A DNA stretch of 45,782 nt from UHGV virus genome UHGV-0242872. One strand, 5' to 3'. The notes under the pieces are model-generated. The model was not told the origin of the DNA and ran no database searches. It was given only the letters and a program-made list of their open reading frames with translations. Origin of the DNA: a virus. How positions within the stretch are numbered: position 1 is the first letter of the stretch; the number at the start of each line of letters is the position of its first letter. This document shows, piece by piece, positions 25,744-44,748 of the stretch. The position numbers and the translations under genes are program-made.

Positions 25744-25932
25744 ATAAAATTTTGCAATAGGGATTATGTTCTCGAAATTAAGCATATTGGCCGGTTCGAA
25801 CTCATCCTCTACAGGGTAGTATCGCATCATGGTACCGTTCAAGAACGTGAACGATTCCGAGTGTAGATACCCATCCCAGTGCCATACCATCAAAAAATCT
25901 TTATCAGTCGGCATTTCATTTACTTGAATCAT
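25729..25932 (-). CDS. hypothetical protein (67 aa)
   Basis: ATG 25932 with AGGAGG SD overlapping exonuclease stop (ATGA). Confidence 0.4.
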   Translation of the reverse strand: MIQVNEMPTDKDFLMVWHWDGYLHSESFTFLNGTMMRYYPVEDEFEPANMLNFENIIPIAKFYLTHE

Positions 25933-27218
25933 TCTAAATCCTCCTCTGTAACTTGATTCCACTCAGGACGTTTGTCATCCGCCGTTGCGACGCATGGCGC
26001 ACCGGGCTTACGGGTAATGAAGTCTTTCAGTTCTTCTTCCGGTACAATTTTAACCGCTTCGGTCGGTGTCATAAGAACTACCTTTTGCAGCATAGTACCG
26101 TACTTCTCGAATACTGCATCGGTATCTTTCCACGCACGATTACCCGGGCGTCCTTCAACCAGTTTATACCCCGGCACTTTCTTACCGGAATGTAACGCAG
26201 CAGCCATAGCTTTCTCAACCTTGTCGATGTGCTGGCGCAACAACGGCAACTTCTCATACTCAGCTACGAGTTGCTCTGGCGTAAGCTCAAGTGCAAAGTC
26301 GTCCTCCAGTTCTTCCGCCAGCCCCGCGTTAACGGTTTTTGTACGCGCTGCGCATTGTTCAGAGAACCGACACCACTGACAACCATCTACCGACGGCTTG
26401 AAGTCCGACGCTTTCAGGTTCTTTTTACCCCGGAAATAGGCATCAAGAGCCAACAGCGCCCGTTTCTGTGCAAACTTAGCGAACAGTTCCAGACCTTCAA
26501 CCGAGATGTCCCACTCCGATGCACCGCCAGCGTACGGCTGGAAGATGACCAGTCGAACGGTTGTTATGCTATAACGTCTCTTGAGTCGGCGATAAACGCC
26601 GAGAGCATAAAGCATAAGCTGCTTGTTTTCTTTCGCTTCGACACGATGCCGCCCGGTTTTCAGGTCGCAGATGATAAGCATGTGTTCGTCGGTGTTAGCC
26701 AGTTCCTGTATGGCAACAAGGTCAGCAGTTCCGAACGTCTCCACAGTTTTAAAAACCCCGGCGTTGCCATCCCCCGGCTCCCCAGCAACACGAAACATAT
26801 AGCCAGGATGCAATACCTCAGTAAGATTGACCCGCATTTCCAGCTTAGCGTAAGCCGCTACGTCGATAATCGCTTTGCAGTAGTCGGTGTACTTGCGCAC
26901 CTGCTCAATCATGTCCGCCGTAATCAGTACAGCACCTTTCATCGGGCTGATTAGCGCCTTAATCTGGCCTTTACCCTCGTCCAGCACGTAAGCGCCAACT
27001 TCACGCTCTAACGGCAGTGCAGTTCCGCGGATATAGGCGTTGAGATGGACCTCCGCTATGGTGTGGCACGCTGTACCTGTAACGGCGGCTTTACCTGACG
27101 TGTTGGGAATATCTTTCTCACAGGCCAGCGATGCGGCGCAGCTTAGCCACTTTTTAGCCCCTGACGGCGACAGCAGGGCGTGCACATCGTTATTGCCGCC
27201 GCGTTCTTTTAAAATCAT
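25929..27218 (-). CDS. Cas4/RecB-like PD-(D/E)XK exonuclease (DUF2800-like)
   Basis: ATG 27218 with GGGAGG SD; LLSPSGAKKWLSC, DLK motif, C-terminal CQWCRFSEQC cysteine cluster. Confidence 0.7.
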   Translation of the reverse strand: MILKERGGNNDVHALLSPSGAKKWLSCAASLACEKDIPNTSGKAAVTGTACHTIAEVHLNAYIRGTALPLEREVGAYVLDEGKGQIKALISPMKGAVLITADMIEQVRKYTDYCKAIIDVAAYAKLEMRVNLTEVLHPGYMFRVAGEPGDGNAGVFKTVETFGTADLVAIQELANTDEHMLIICDLKTGRHRVEAKENKQLMLYALGVYRRLKRRYSITTVRLVIFQPYAGGASEWDISVEGLELFAKFAQKRALLALDAYFRGKKNLKASDFKPSVDGCQWCRFSEQCAARTKTVNAGLAEELEDDFALELTPEQLVAEYEKLPLLRQHIDKVEKAMAAALHSGKKVPGYKLVEGRPGNRAWKDTDAVFEKYGTMLQKVVLMTPTEAVKIVPEEELKDFITRKPGAPCVATADDKRPEWNQVTEEDLE

Positions 27219-28312: not shown

Positions 28313-28341
28313 ACTATAATAGCGAACTATTCACATGTCAA
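28313..28341 (-). promoter_or_regulatory. consensus sigma70 promoter TTGACA-N17-TATAGT (leftward early)
   Basis: -35 at 28341-28336, -10 at 28318-28313; palindrome AATAG-cgaa-CTATT 28318-28331 in spacer. Confidence 0.7.
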
Positions 28342-40573: not shown

Positions 40574-42046
40574 ATGTTAACTATGAACGGTCAGAATCAG
40601 GGTGTTAAGACAAAACACCGGGAATGGCTGCACCACTTCGATAAATGGCAGAAGGTGCGCCACGCGCTGGAAGGCGACCTTATCCGCTATCTGCGCAACG
40701 TTGGGAAGAATGAGCCGGACCCGACCTACGCGGCACAGCGCCAGGAAGAATACGAGAACGGCGCTATCTGTTACAACTTCACCAAGAGAACGCTGGCGGG
40801 GATGGTCGGCAGTGTCATGCGCAAAGACCCCGAGCAGATTATACCGCCTGAACTGGAGTACCTGTTACGTAACGCGGACGGTTCTGGTGTCGGGCTGTGG
40901 CAGCACGCACAGGATACGCTAATGGAGATTGATTCGGTGGGTCGTGGCGGGTTGCTGGTGGACGCCCCGGAGACTGCTGCCGCAACGGCAGCTGAACAGA
41001 ACGCAGGGTTATTAAACCCGGTCATCGCATTCTACACCGCAGAGAACATCATCAACTGGCGACTGACCCGCGTCGGTTCTGTTAACCGTGTGACAATGGT
41101 CGTGTTGCGTGAAGTGTGGGAATACTCAGAACCTGGAGCAGAGTTCGAAACTAAGTTCGGTGAACAGTACCGCGTCCTTGACCTGATTGATGGTCGCTAC
41201 CGCCAGCGCATTTACCGTTTCGACGCCGAGGGCGGCGCTCAGGGCGAAGTAATCGAAATCTTCCCGGAACTCGGCGAACAGTTACGCGGCAAAATCCCGT
41301 TCACGTTCATTGGTGCAAGCAACAACGATGCAACCATTGACGATGCACCTTTGCTGCCGTTGGCTGAGCTTAATATTGGGCATTTCCGCAACAGTGCAGA
41401 CAATGAGGAGTCCAGCTTCGTCGTAGGCCAGCCTACTCTGTTCATCGCCCCCGGTGAGAACATGAGCATGGAACAATGGAAAGAAGCCAACCCGCACGGA
41501 GTGCGTATGGGGTCACGTTCTGGCCATAACATCGGTTACGGCGGCAATGCGTTTCTGGTCCAGGCCGGTGAGAACAACCTAGCCAAGCAGAACATGCTGG
41601 ATAAAGAGAATCAGGCCATCCAGATTGGTGCGCAGCTTATCACCCCTACCCAGCAAATCACCGCTGAATCAGCCCGCCTGCAACGTGGTGCCGACACGTC
41701 CGTTATGGCGACAATTGCACGTAACGTAAGCATGGCGTATACCGATGCGCTAAAGTGGGTTGCGGGTATGCTTGGGCTTAGTGACGGCACTGAAATTGAG
41801 TTCAAACTGAACATGGAGTTCTTCCTGCAACCAATGACCGCCCAGGACCGCACTCAGTGGATGGCGGATATTAACGCGGGCCTGTTACCGGCTACCGCTT
41901 ACTATGCCGCGTTGCGTAAGGCGGGGGTAACTGACTGGACAGACGAGGACATTCAGAACGCTATCGAGGATGCGCCGCTGCCGGTGGGTGCGGTCACTCC
42001 GGTAGCAGGCGAAATCCCGCAGTCGGTGCAGCAACAGCAGGAGTAA
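40574..42046 (+). CDS. portal protein
   Basis: 490 aa immediately after terL, AGAGGA SD. Confidence 0.8.
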   Translation: MLTMNGQNQGVKTKHREWLHHFDKWQKVRHALEGDLIRYLRNVGKNEPDPTYAAQRQEEYENGAICYNFTKRTLAGMVGSVMRKDPEQIIPPELEYLLRNADGSGVGLWQHAQDTLMEIDSVGRGGLLVDAPETAAATAAEQNAGLLNPVIAFYTAENIINWRLTRVGSVNRVTMVVLREVWEYSEPGAEFETKFGEQYRVLDLIDGRYRQRIYRFDAEGGAQGEVIEIFPELGEQLRGKIPFTFIGASNNDATIDDAPLLPLAELNIGHFRNSADNEESSFVVGQPTLFIAPGENMSMEQWKEANPHGVRMGSRSGHNIGYGGNAFLVQAGENNLAKQNMLDKENQAIQIGAQLITPTQQITAESARLQRGADTSVMATIARNVSMAYTDALKWVAGMLGLSDGTEIEFKLNMEFFLQPMTAQDRTQWMADINAGLLPATAYYAALRKAGVTDWTDEDIQNAIEDAPLPVGAVTPVAGEIPQSVQQQQE

Positions 42047-42072
42047 AGAAAAAGGCCCCGTTATGGGGCCTT
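42047..42072. terminator. hairpin terminator (stronger on minus strand)
   Basis: AGGCCCC-GTTAT-GGGGCCT; U-tract lies on the minus-strand side. Confidence 0.55.
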
Positions 42073-42075
42073 AGC

Positions 42076-42249
42076 TTATGCGTCTCTACTCGCCAGATAA
42101 TCACAGCGGGCTATGGCTAAGTCTAAGCTACTGTATGCGCTATCTGTTTTAGCGTGGGTGAACCCCGAAATCATTACGTGGTACACGCCTTTATCGTTTA
42201 GAACCCAGTATTTACCATTTTCGTGCATTATGTCTTTTTCTTTGAACAT
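42076..42249 (-). CDS. hypothetical protein (57 aa)
   Basis: ATG 42249 with AGGAG SD; driven by minus-strand TTGCAG-N17-TACTAT promoter. Confidence 0.4.
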   Translation of the reverse strand: MFKEKDIMHENGKYWVLNDKGVYHVMISGFTHAKTDSAYSSLDLAIARCDYLASRDA

Positions 42250-42296
42250 TTTTCATCTCCTGTTTAAGTTAACTGAATAGTACCCTATTATATTGG
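42246..42296 (+). repeat. 51-nt direct repeat, copy 1 (promoter, operator and SD of a minus-strand small gene)
   Basis: 50/51 identical to 44977-45027. Confidence 0.8.
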
Positions 42297-42305
42297 TGTC
42301 TGCAA
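42277..42305 (-). promoter_or_regulatory. sigma70-like promoter TTGCAG-N17-TACTAT
   Basis: minus strand; palindrome AATAG-tacc-CTATT 42276-42289 overlaps the -10; part of 51-nt repeat. Confidence 0.5.
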
Positions 42306-42349
42306 ATATTATTTTTATGCGTTACACTGGCGATACTACAGGAGGGCAC

Positions 42350-44287
42350 ATGAGCTTACTTACATCCCTAATTAGCCACCAGATATGGCTGCAACGCACC
42401 GCATCCGGTGAAGTGAAAGACCTCACACCATTCATTCAGGAGATGCGGGATGAAATCAAACGGCAAGTGCTGTTATTCGGTGACGACGGTCGTAGCACCG
42501 CGCGACTGAATAAACTGTTACGCGACCTTGAAGAAGCACTGACCGGGCTTACAGGTGACTGGCAAACAAAGCTGACAGAAGACCTTAAGGAACTGGCGGC
42601 ATATGAGGCTGAGTGGAACGTAAAGACACTGACCGCCAACGTAGCTGCGGAATTTGTTACACCTACCGCTGAACAGGTGTGGGCTGCTGCCGAGTTTCAA
42701 CCGTTATCGTTGAGCGACAAGCCTGTTGACTTCACTAAGCTGATGTCAGGTTGGGGTGAAACCGAAGTCGCGCGCCTGGTAACGGGTGTTAAGATGGGCT
42801 TTGTTCAGGGTAAGACAACACGGCAGATTGTTACAGAAGTAGTCGGTAAAGGCGGGCTGGCTGACGTATCAGAGAAATACGCCGCTACCGTAATCCGCAC
42901 TGCGCTGTCTCACGTGTCCAACGAAGCCCGCAATGAAACATACCGCCAGAACGACGATATCATCGAGAAGTACGAATGGGTGTCAACGCTGGACAGCCGT
43001 ACCAGTACAACGTGTTTCACGGCTGAAACAGAATTAGCGCCCATCGCGGGGATGGACGCGGTAATGCGCGGACTCTATTCAGGAAAAATCTTTACCATCG
43101 AACTTTCCAACGGCGAGAAGTTCAGTGGCACCCCGAAACACCCTGTACTCACGCAATACGGATGGACTCCGCTTGATGAACTCGATCCAACTAAGCATGT
43201 CTTGTATACCACTGTTGACAAAGTGACTGTGCTCGAAACAGTGAAGAACATAAACATGCCAGCCAGAGCGGATTATATTTTTAATACGCTCGCTGATTTC
43301 CCCATCAGGAAAATGGTAAGCACGAGTCCCGCGGCAACAGATTTCTATGGCGATGGAGTGGGACTCAATGGCAAAATCGACATTGTACGGACCGATTGCA
43401 AACTGCGGAACTACGTCCACGCCAGCGGAATTAAACAATTCAAAAGCGAGGGTTTCAGTCTTATTCATAGCGCCGCTTTGCTGTCGGACGATAGCTCTGG
43501 CGATTTTCTCCTCCGGGGTGAATGTCCTGTGAGTGTGCCCGCGCTTAGCGAGGCCAAGTGTTTTGACCATAGAATAGAAAACTGTTTTGCTTACTTGGGT
43601 CCTTCTTATGCACTCAATAGGCGGAACGCCGGACTCGAACAATTCTATAGCCCTTTTTTGATTCAAAATGGTGTCGTTAGAAACCCAACCACGGGGTCGA
43701 TCATGCATGAGTCCGAGCTTCTTGAGAAATGTTGTTACCGTGGTGGTAGTGACGCCGTAATTCTTGGCTATGATGCTGGCGGGAGTGCCATCTCGGTACA
43801 AAGAACAAATATCATCCGCATAAGCGTCGAGTTTAGAACGTGCCATGTTTATACCCTCTCTAGTAGTCAAGGATATTATACAGCAGGTAGTGCGATAGTC
43901 AAGAATTGCAGGGCCAGAGACGGGATGACGTGGGAAATTGGTAAGGGGCCGATGCCCCCAGCCCATCCGAACTGCCGGTCGTGCACGGCTCCGGTAATCA
44001 GTTCCGAGTTCGACTTCCTCGATAAAGGCGCAAAACGCGCGGCTAAAGGCGCGGAAGGTGGCACTCAGGTAAGCGCAGACACCACTTACTACGAGTTCCT
44101 TAAACAACAACCGGCGTGGTTTCAGGACCAGGCGCTCGGCCCGGTGCGAGGTAAGATTTTCCGTAACAGCGGTATATCGCCGGAAGAGTTTCGCGTAATA
44201 TCTGTAGATGGTTTCGGGAATCCGCTCACGCTTAAGCAGATGGCGGAACTCGATAAACGTGTTGCTGATTATCTGAAAGGGGAATAA
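42350..44287 (+). CDS. head morphogenesis protein (Mu F / SPP1 gp7-like) interrupted by an in-frame intein
   Basis: ATG 42350 with AGGAGGG SD; exteins join to give DSRTSTT|CRARDGMTWEIGKGPMPPAHPNCRSC; precursor 645 aa, predicted mature 347 aa. Confidence 0.75.
   Translation: MSLLTSLISHQIWLQRTASGEVKDLTPFIQEMRDEIKRQVLLFGDDGRSTARLNKLLRDLEEALTGLTGDWQTKLTEDLKELAAYEAEWNVKTLTANVAAEFVTPTAEQVWAAAEFQPLSLSDKPVDFTKLMSGWGETEVARLVTGVKMGFVQGKTTRQIVTEVVGKGGLADVSEKYAATVIRTALSHVSNEARNETYRQNDDIIEKYEWVSTLDSRTSTTCFTAETELAPIAGMDAVMRGLYSGKIFTIELSNGEKFSGTPKHPVLTQYGWTPLDELDPTKHVLYTTVDKVTVLETVKNINMPARADYIFNTLADFPIRKMVSTSPAATDFYGDGVGLNGKIDIVRTDCKLRNYVHASGIKQFKSEGFSLIHSAALLSDDSSGDFLLRGECPVSVPALSEAKCFDHRIENCFAYLGPSYALNRRNAGLEQFYSPFLIQNGVVRNPTTGSIMHESELLEKCCYRGGSDAVILGYDAGGSAISVQRTNIIRISVEFRTCHVYTLSSSQGYYTAGSAIVKNCRARDGMTWEIGKGPMPPAHPNCRSCTAPVISSEFDFLDKGAKRAAKGAEGGTQVSADTTYYEFLKQQPAWFQDQALGPVRGKIFRNSGISPEEFRVISVDGFGNPLTLKQMAELDKRVADYLKGE
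43079..43846 (-). CDS. HTH plus DUF559/Vsr-like PD-(D/E)XK endonuclease encoded antisense inside the intein
   Basis: ATG 43846 with GAGAGGG SD; two HTH-like segments; endonuclease core YNVDFAIESHSIAIEICCRG...GWHVYVLH; track ORF extends to 44110. Confidence 0.6.
   Translation of the reverse strand: MARSKLDAYADDICSLYRDGTPASIIAKNYGVTTTTVTTFLKKLGLMHDRPRGWVSNDTILNQKRAIELFESGVPPIECIRRTQVSKTVFYSMVKTLGLAKRGHTHRTFTPEEKIARAIVRQQSGAMNKTETLAFELFNSAGVDVVPQFAIGPYNVDFAIESHSIAIEICCRGTRAYHFPDGEISERIKNIIRSGWHVYVLHCFEHSHFVNSGIQDMLSWIEFIKRSPSVLREYRVFRGATELLAVGKFDGKDFS
43875..43902 (-). promoter_or_regulatory. consensus sigma70 promoter TTGACT-N16-TATAAT inside the intein 3' end
   Basis: -35 at 43902-43897, -10 at 43880-43875 on minus strand, about 30 nt upstream of the antisense ATG. 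Confidence 0.6.
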
Positions 44288-44748
44288 TGATGGGCTTTTT
44301 CAAAGTAACTGACGTACCGTCTCGTCGCGTAGTCCAGTACGCCCGCGTGTCTGGCTCTGGCGAGAACGTGGTATTTATTGAGGACGAAAGTGTACTCGGT
44401 ACACCGGTAGATGATATGCCGTTTGCAGATAAAACCGGTATTGCGTTGCCCGCCGCCGGTATGCTTTATGAAATTCCGTATCTGGCGGACGCTGGCGACG
44501 TGTATTTCTCTGCGCAACCGCAGGACGCTGAACTGGCGGGCGGCAGCGCAACCATCACTGTCGAGGTTAAGGCAGGCAAAGCGCCGTATTCTCTGACCTG
44601 GTACAAAGACGGTAAGGAAGTGGTGAATGCGCCTGAGGAGGCTCTGTCTCTGACGGTTAATGCGGTCGGCGAATACTTCGTTAAAGTTACTGATGCCGAT
44701 GGAGTAGAGGCGGTAAGCAAAGCGGCGAAGGTTACTAAGCCAGAATGA
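44287..44748 (+). CDS. Ig-like domain protein (virion decoration candidate)
   Basis: 153 aa; APYSLTWYKDGKEV...EYFVKVTDADG Ig-like signature; TAATG overlap with upstream gene. Confidence 0.55.
   Translation: MMGFFKVTDVPSRRVVQYARVSGSGENVVFIEDESVLGTPVDDMPFADKTGIALPAAGMLYEIPYLADAGDVYFSAQPQDAELAGGSATITVEVKAGKAPYSLTWYKDGKEVVNAPEEALSLTVNAVGEYFVKVTDADGVEAVSKAAKVTKPE

Follow-up and report, generated by a model that had tools for sequence, protein, structure and literature searches.

A putative homing-nuclease gene on the antisense strand of an intein in a coliphage head-morphogenesis gene

The virus genome UHGV-0242872, a stretch of 45,782 nucleotides (nt) that we call the window, is that of a Kagunavirus (Guernseyvirinae) coliphage whose head-morphogenesis gene of the Mu F/SPP1 gp7 type (MuF) contains an intein, and this intein holds on its opposite strand, in codon register with its own frame, a gene for a Vsr-like nuclease. 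We consider it probable that the two form a composite selfish element, in which a contiguous MuF intein is coupled to an antisense gene for a putative homing nuclease. The comparisons that follow establish the anatomy of this arrangement, the homology and fold of the nuclease, the strand on which constraint lies, and the pattern of horizontal spread. The original prediction, made from the bare sequence, had proposed that the mobility function of the intein is supplied from the antisense strand and had named three ways in which this could fail: a forward insert without a Hint match, a reverse frame without a nuclease-fold match, or constraint on one strand only. All three were tested and none refuted the idea, which is supported in its testable respects.

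The intein and the gene opposite

The open reading frame (ORF) at 42350-44287 on the plus strand (ATG at 42350, stop at 44285-44287) runs unbroken for 645 amino acids (aa) and encodes the precursor of the head-morphogenesis protein. That it is the MuF gene, as first proposed, is clear from its position directly downstream of the portal gene and from matches that pass the cutoffs of curated models, PF04233 (Phage_Mu_F; 32.3 bits, cutoff 29.6) and TIGR01641 (42.8 bits, cutoff 39.65), together with phrog_241 (E = 1e-143). Set against the intein-less allele found in phage SCS44, the gene shows a clean in-frame insert of 298 aa at the predicted insertion point, running from a Cys codon at 43013 to an Asn codon at 43904-43906, with Cys +1 next to it at 43907. 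Judged from the aligned sequences, the insertion site is before a conserved Cys of the MuF protein, a conserved motif of which is split. The N-extein (42350-43012, plus strand, 221 aa, delimited by alignment with the intein-less allele L003) and the C-extein (43907-44287, plus strand, 126 aa plus stop, likewise from alignment with an intein-less allele) would be joined into a spliced product of 347 aa, the length of the intein-less protein. Only four of 253 matching phage records have the insert; the remaining records, about 250, lack it.

What kind of insert is it? As a single sequence it falls below the curated intein models (Pfam PF14890, 21.8 bits for a cutoff of 35.8; NCBIfam TIGR01445, 17.8 bits for a cutoff of 24.5), and its penultimate residue is Lys, giving a Lys-Asn end rather than the usual His-Asn. 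Both points weigh against an active intein and could be taken as signs of a degenerate Hint remnant, unable to splice and tolerated by the head protein as an internal domain, a reading that we regard as very improbable. Cys1, the TxxH motif (T40-P-K-H43), Asn298, and Cys +1 are invariant in seven diverged forward homologues and so are conserved across clades; the insert splits a conserved motif of an otherwise intact head gene in viable, isolated phages; and a profile that combines seven diverged forward inserts, single-sequence scans being too weak, matches solved inteins, namely the PI-MtuI RecA intein over block B (3e-8) and the Pho CDC21 intein over blocks F/G (6e-6), as well as PI-PkoII and the RadA, DnaX, and DnaB inteins. 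The Hint blocks and the Cys1 and Cys +1 residues first noticed in the bare sequence are borne out in this way, and we take the insert at 43013-43906 (plus strand; Cys1 to Lys-Asn298) to be a class-1 Hint intein that presumably splices. Block B (TPKHPVLTQYGW, with the TxxH motif) is assigned to 43130-43165 and blocks F/G (HVYTLSSSQGYYTAGSAIVKN) to 43844-43906, both on the plus strand. Between them the forward frame matches no LAGLIDADG, HNH, or other Pfam or NCBIfam family, in agreement with the first inspection, and a protein-database search with the forward intein returned only two partial homologues, because gene callers apparently favour the reverse ORF.

That reverse ORF lies on the minus strand at 43079-43846, with its ATG at 43846 and its stop at 43079-43081, and encodes 255 aa; the coordinates given in the original prediction are exact. 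Its codon boundaries coincide with those of the intein frame, so that forward position 3 is reverse position 1, and a stop in one frame is a TTA, CTA, or TCA codon in the other. The predicted pair of helix-turn-helix (HTH) segments is apparent in an AlphaFold2 (AF2) model as two N-terminal three-helix modules, at reverse aa 5-43 and 57-96 (43559-43834, minus strand), with matches to the tandem-HTH structure 2lvs (E = 1.3e-6), to resolvase HTHs, and to Pfam HTH_7 (1.6e-4). The C-terminal domain, at reverse aa ~111-249 (43100-43516, minus strand), has a Vsr-type nuclease fold in a high-confidence model, and a profile of this catalytic domain matches 3r3p at E = 4e-4, so the proposed DUF559/Vsr-like core holds. 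It keeps D157, E168, E186, and R187, but the sequence IEICCRGT stands in place of VEVFGGxWH, and the catalytic His of the family is missing, a change to which we return below.

Homologues of the reverse protein at 53, 45, and 26% identity were found, a profile search gave more than 180 relatives, several of them named very-short-patch-repair endonuclease by JGI, and an exhaustive profile search collected 1,703 clusters of the nuclease family (at 50% identity) with E<=1e-30, with homologues spread across phyla. The ATG has the same aligned position in all clades, and GAGG precedes it in L006, L007, and L009, three metagenome contigs that carry relatives. Stops immediately upstream of the ATG in L007 and L009 exclude a longer, TTG-initiated version of the ORF, reaching to 44110, as the gene. 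The homologues, the Vsr-like model, the start site, and the substitution pattern described in the next section show that the reverse ORF is a real gene.

Where are the expression signals of this gene? They appear to lie within the splicing blocks of the intein. The reverse ATG is read from the complement of the CAT codon for His278, the first codon of block F (HVYTL), and a Shine-Dalgarno sequence, GAGAGGG (43854-43860, minus strand), stands 7 nt before it in the Thr-Leu-Ser codons. Farther upstream is a candidate sigma-70-type promoter, TTGACT-N16-TATAAT (43875-43902, minus strand), which was described correctly and agrees with the consensus at 11 of 12 positions; its -35 hexamer occupies the Ile-Val-Lys codons and its -10 hexamer the Tyr-Tyr-Thr codons of block G, so that the codons of blocks F/G hold the start codon, ribosome-binding site, and promoter of the reverse gene. 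Matches of at least 11/12 occur three times in the window (45.8 kb), compared with 0.57 expected from shuffled sequences, and the promoter is kept in relatives whose proteins are 45-53% identical, with TTGACT at -35 in both and CATAAT (L006) or TATAAT (L007) at -10. The other two matches, at 28341 and 25743 on the minus strand (TTGACA-N17-TATAGT in both), are probably early promoters of a minus-strand gene block. Over the 20 codons of blocks F/G the forward synonymous divergence is 0.14, compared with ~0.5 elsewhere, which argues for constraint at the DNA level, although the conserved amino acids explain part of it; the conservation of the hexamers, too, is partly forced by conserved block-G residues and to that extent counts for less.

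At the other end of the gene, the nuclease C-terminus LREYRVFRG mirrors TPKHPVLTQ of block B codon by codon, and the last ~25 nuclease codons mirror this block as a whole. Essentially all of the 238 family members retrieved have LREYRVFRG or a close variant; the motif forms two confident beta-strands in the AlphaFold model. A terminator-like hairpin (43037-43059, minus strand; fold energy -23.2 kcal/mol, z -2.8) lies 20 nt past the reverse stop within the codons of block A, and L006 has a hairpin of other sequence with a T-rich tail at the matching place; we infer only from these features that it may act as a terminator. Nothing relevant emerged when 42000-44600 was scanned against Rfam; a match to the skipping-rope RNA at 44373-44434 (plus strand) in a Hoc-like decoration gene is weak and below threshold (20.6 bits, threshold 36.7; E = 0.15) and most likely due to chance.

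Selection on the two strands

Codon-aligned antisense frames are the ones most often open, and this is a point in favour of reading the reverse ORF as a chance shadow ORF, with promoter and Shine-Dalgarno sequence as chance matches. Given the reverse protein and the codon usage of the phage, in which 20% of Leu codons are TTA or CTA and 18% of Ser codons are TCA, the probability that the opposite frame is open is 6.5e-4 (2.8e-4 for the L006 protein and 1.1e-4 for the L007 protein), and none of the 35 Leu and Ser codons of the nuclease gene is TTA, CTA, or TCA. The longest codon-aligned antisense open stretch measures 343-401 codons here and 71-252 codons in the window's 17 remaining long genes. 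The upper value of the latter range, 252 codons, belongs to a 429-aa gene at 25932-27218 (minus strand). Open length alone is suggestive, and it is comparison that decides. When the reverse protein was scanned as a single sequence against Pfam, NCBIfam, and PHROG, the nuclease matches were all below cutoff, which also tells against a functional nuclease gene; but a large family with homologues across phyla, a high-confidence Vsr-like model, a start codon at a constant position in every clade, with L007 and L009 having stops immediately upstream of it, and substitutions on the reverse strand of the kind typical of coding sequence refute a chance ORF, which we consider scarcely credible.

In the interior of the element (43230-43846), the window and L006 differ at 86, 67, and 128 sites in reverse codon positions 1, 2, and 3, respectively, and are 0.50 identical in amino acids when read in reverse versus 0.26 when read forward; over the comparisons made, interior amino acid identity ranges from 0.24 to 0.50 in reverse versus 0.16 to 0.31 forward. 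The exteins show the expected excess of differences at forward third positions. Because dN/dS is biased in overlapping frames, we relied on the contrast between the two frames, and this bias must be set against our interpretation. By the Nei-Gojobori method, the ratio of nonsynonymous to synonymous proportions of differences (pN/pS) in the interior is 0.45-0.60 in reverse, with pS saturated (0.70-0.79), and 0.80-0.98 forward. Among five closely related intein-bearing phages, five of the six variable intein sites are synonymous in reverse and nonsynonymous forward, although six sites within the clade are a small number and limit what this comparison can carry. Together the substitutions point to purifying selection on the reverse frame of the interior, the forward frame looking neutral save for strict avoidance of stops, and to constraint on both strands in the splicing blocks. 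The substitution pattern and the avoidance of TTA, CTA, and TCA therefore suggest that the forward interior behaves as a stop-free passenger. The dual-strand coding first proposed is thus upheld in that both frames are open and the reverse one is coding, but it is asymmetric, the forward interior apparently being selected only to stay stop-free; likewise, the anticipated question of whether one strand alone is constrained has a divided answer, with the reverse strand constrained in the interior and both strands in the splicing blocks.

Might the forward interior nonetheless also encode a folded, functional domain, for instance a novel in-frame endonuclease or a DNA-binding domain, so that ~770 nt would be truly bifunctional? 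The forward motif P..S..DF(Y/H)GDG..G.(I/V) is conserved across clades, and the regions of blocks A/B and F/G are constrained on both strands, as such a domain would lead one to expect. But the conserved DF(Y/H)GDG exactly mirrors the catalytic strand of the nuclease, (A/V)(I/V)E(I/V); the forward interior has a pN/pS of 0.8-1.0 and the lower of the two identity ranges; forward first positions are free to change, as the saturation of reverse synonymous sites shows; the forward interior matches no family; and a 2025 preprint discussed below describes, in its available text, no recognisable structure in the corresponding region of its own cases. We consider bifunctional coding improbable, and an in-frame novel endonuclease domain in particular was rejected on the substitution patterns. 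An AF2 model of the forward intein from a three-sequence alignment reached a predicted local distance difference test score (pLDDT) of 31 and left even the Hint parts unfolded, so that it speaks neither for nor against a disordered interior.

Homing and the altered active site

The locus of the window is 100% identical to IMG/VR contig UViG_3300045988_006100, and its MuF gene is 93-95% identical to those of the phages BEU35, fEg-Eco06, vB-Eco-KMB36, and Ec1-ASingh. In the five intein-bearing phages, intein divergence is 0.2-0.6% compared with 6-13% in the exteins, and the invariant extein sequence around the insert is short: 27 nt upstream (42986-43012), which may represent a co-conversion tract and one half of the homing site, and 17 nt downstream (43907-43923). 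Just before the insert all intein-bearing alleles read ACAACG (Thr-Thr), whereas SCS44, the one intein-less allele compared, reads ACGATT (Thr-Ile). A near-identical intein in diverged exteins with such short flanks indicates recent homing with very short co-conversion tracts.

We infer the following sequence of events, in which transcription, translation, cleavage, splicing, and their timing are all proposed from the features described above. Translation of the host gene would run through the element without a break, and the intein would splice itself out to leave the 347-aa protein; the ~200 forward codons between blocks B and F would be a stop-free antisense shadow of the reverse gene and not an endonuclease domain. 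The host RNA polymerase would transcribe the nuclease gene from the promoter in blocks F/G, plausibly early, ahead of late transcription of the head genes. In a mixed infection, the nuclease would cut an intein-less allele at or near ...CAGTACGATT^TGCAGGGCC..., the intein-less junction in a Kagunavirus such as SCS44 being ACAGCCGTACCAGTACGATT^TGCAGGGCCAGAGACGGGAT, and recombinational repair would copy the intein along with the gene nested in it, and the co-conversion tracts would be very short. Selection would then act on the reverse frame for its protein sequence and on the forward frame only against TAA, TAG, and TGA, which would account for a nuclease gene devoid of TTA, CTA, and TCA.

One difficulty for this scheme is the active site. 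In the clade of the window, which comprises the window protein and its relatives P0001 and P0002, reverse aa 168-177 (43316-43345, minus strand) read IAIEICCRGT where the family consensus is VAVEVFGGxWHxxGxH. This consensus and 22 of the 25 members in a printed alignment keep the catalytic His, and 189 of the 238 retrieved members are GGxWH-like by a loose regular expression, the window clade not being among them. The His that corresponds to the general base of I-Bth0305I (H213) and of Vsr (H69) is Arg175 in the window and is gone in P0001 and P0002 as well, and the composite EDxHD motif (E, D, H, D) is accordingly incomplete, with D157, E168, and E186 aligned and the His missing. In I-Bth0305I, H213 is the predicted general base, and the H213A change disrupts dimerisation (Taylor et al. 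2011, PMC3239194). With the catalytic His missing, the window enzyme may use another mechanism, or it may not cleave.

An alternative is accordingly that the nuclease gene is real but that in the window clade it no longer serves homing, or not homing only, and acts instead by binding or nicking DNA, by excluding or degrading competitor genomes, or in regulation, while the intein spreads by ordinary recombination. The loss of the His favours this alternative, as does its absence from a Jerseyvirus relative (L017, Salmonella phage vB_StyS-sam), which reads GGGWA. However, IAIEICCRGT is identical in three proteins of only 45-53% identity, and the site is therefore under selection; D157, E168, E186, and R187 are all retained; and a near-identical intein and gene within exteins 6-13% divergent, with very short flanks, are the signature of nuclease-driven homing. 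We regard another role as unlikely, though it is the alternative that we take most seriously, and continue to favour a mobile intein with an antisense homing nuclease.

Next to the element, the gap between the portal and MuF genes (42038-42349) measures ~310 nt in the window and ~87 nt in five close relatives. It contains a 57-aa ORF at 42076-42249 (minus strand; phrog_20712, function unknown, E = 1e-27), which is followed by a terminator-like hairpin at 42072-42052; a weak promoter-like site lies at 42256-42227. The extra DNA resembles a small moron-type insertion.

Distribution and relation to known systems

The nuclease ORF lies codon-aligned and antisense inside the intein of an open MuF-like gene at all 17 loci examined, which were the window; the metagenome contigs L006, L007, and L009; the IMG/VR contigs L011 and L012; the Pseudomonas prophage L013; the loci L015, L016, and L021-L024; and the Salmonella Jerseyvirus vB_StyS-sam, Haemophilus phage Aaphi23, Gordonia phage Vivi2, and a Vibrio phage. 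The forward frame is uninterrupted in all of them, which rules out a split intein or fractured gene. Two intein sites ~20 codons apart are used within MuF, DSRTSxx^C in the window and HPN^C in Jerseyviruses and most family members; L012 (IMGVR_UViG_3300031576_000021) has inteins at both, with an antisense nuclease gene only in the second. It is an even call, in our judgement, whether this nuclease family (~1,700 clusters at 50% identity) is an obligate, ancient antisense partner of MuF inteins and not a homing endonuclease gene (HEG) that stands free and occasionally lands in them. The obligate reading draws on the nesting at all loci examined, on the co-encoding of the expression signals with blocks F/G, and on that of the beta-hairpin REYRV..G.GE with LTCTPNHP.LT of block B.

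Two unusual records came up in these searches. P0115 joins the N-terminal half of a PHA synthase (PhaC) to the C-terminal two-thirds of the nuclease, with a MuF gene and the N-terminus of its intein on the opposite strand; we rejected it as an in-frame PhaC-nuclease fusion, the metagenome contig L024 (ENA k141_160117) being likely chimeric. P0121, from a 1487-bp NCBI contig, is a 238-aa predicted protein in which a terminase-like N-terminus is joined to the C-terminal half of the window intein (at 99% identity) and the first part of the C-extein; it could be either an assembly chimera or a recombinant.

The original prediction had set the antisense nuclease against the usual in-frame, same-strand placement in inteins, and a premise that it is without precedent does not stand. 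A 2025 preprint (Gosselin, Arsenault & Gogarten, bioRxiv 10.1101/2025.01.02.630785) describes full inteins with antisense VSR-like homing endonucleases in actinobacteriophages, including minor capsid host genes, and, in its available text, reports matches to 1CW0 and 3R3P and near-identical inteins in divergent exteins, both as here. Its cases share with ours the unsplit intein, the antisense VSR-like ORF, and MuF (IPR006528) hosts, and a tblastn search with the window protein found the MuF loci of Gordonia phages Vivi2, Fosterous, and Affeca, the matches lying on the other strand from the annotated gene (E = 7e-12 to 4e-10). The window element differs in its host, an Escherichia coli Kagunavirus; in its insertion site, DSRTSxx^C, most relatives having HPN^C; and in lacking the catalytic His. 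According to the text available, moreover, the ORFs of the preprint typically lie outside the splicing domain and promoters go unmentioned, whereas the candidate signals of the window sit in the splicing blocks; that text also calls the architecture rare, whereas the family collected here counts ~1,700 clusters at 50% identity. Earlier still, antisense LAGLIDADG endonuclease ORFs were described in inteins such as Synechocystis dnaX (Gorbalenya 1998 and Gogarten 2002, as cited by the preprint); judged by those citations, they are alike in having an endonuclease on the opposite strand of a contiguous open intein, and differ in a nuclease family that is not Vsr-like and in hosts that were originally bacterial.

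Other known systems share parts of the arrangement. I-Bth0305I of the EDxHD group (PMC3239194) likewise has two N-terminal HTH/NUMOD-like modules and a C-terminal Vsr-like domain and resides in a phage-borne self-splicing element, but it lies in sense orientation in a group I intron, keeps the motif His that the window protein lacks, and is linked to the latter only weakly in sequence (profile E = 4e-4). In fractured genes with split inteins (Dassa et al. 2009, PMC2677866), a free-standing Vsr-like HEG with its own expression signals also occupies the endonuclease-insertion loop of a phage-gene intein, but there the host gene is in two ORFs and the HEG on the same strand, whereas in the window the intein is contiguous and the HEG antisense and fully overlapped. 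The intein-containing capsid morphogenesis protein of a Salmonella Jerseyvirus (PMC8425127) shares the phage subfamily (Guernseyvirinae), the host gene, and the total length of 645 aa, and an antisense nuclease relative (26% identity) is intact there; its site is ~20 codons downstream (HPN^C), its nuclease has a single HTH, and its intein belongs to another lineage. A 2024 paper called the intein of vKMB36 the first in a coliphage and did not mention the antisense gene. The layout is thus already described, in actinophages and for LAGLIDADG endonucleases (1998-2002), and the coliphage case adds a new member; what appears to go beyond the preprint is the coliphage host, the co-encoding of expression signals and nuclease C-terminus with the splicing blocks, how large and uniform the family is, and the change in the active site.

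This layout has also created a blind spot in annotation, and which partner is lost depends on the source. Phages in GenBank keep the MuF gene and omit the nuclease: the 60 INPHARED phage records that have the element all leave the nuclease unannotated, and of the two GenBank records that annotate the intein, neither mentions the antisense gene. Metagenomes and the Pseudomonas prophage keep the nuclease and lose the essential MuF gene, as at L013 (Pseudomonas sp. PGPPP2, NKIF01000002.1), L015, L016, and L021-L023, where the nuclease ORF was called and the MuF gene left uncalled.

An E. coli host should make the actinophage observation easier to test, through a sigma-70 promoter, co-infection crosses, and silent recoding. 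Recoding with TTA, CTA, or TCA would provide a genetic handle that silences either partner while leaving the other unaltered. Kagunaviruses are candidates for phage therapy, and a homing element in a structural gene would promote recombination among co-infecting phages of a cocktail. For the biology of the element itself, the arrangement places a selfish nuclease and a selfish splicing element on opposite strands of the same DNA, one apparently selected for its protein and the other for the absence of stops. If the nuclease family is indeed an obligate partner of MuF inteins, these pairs would be among the largest and oldest natural, fully overlapped antisense gene pairs evolving as one unit.

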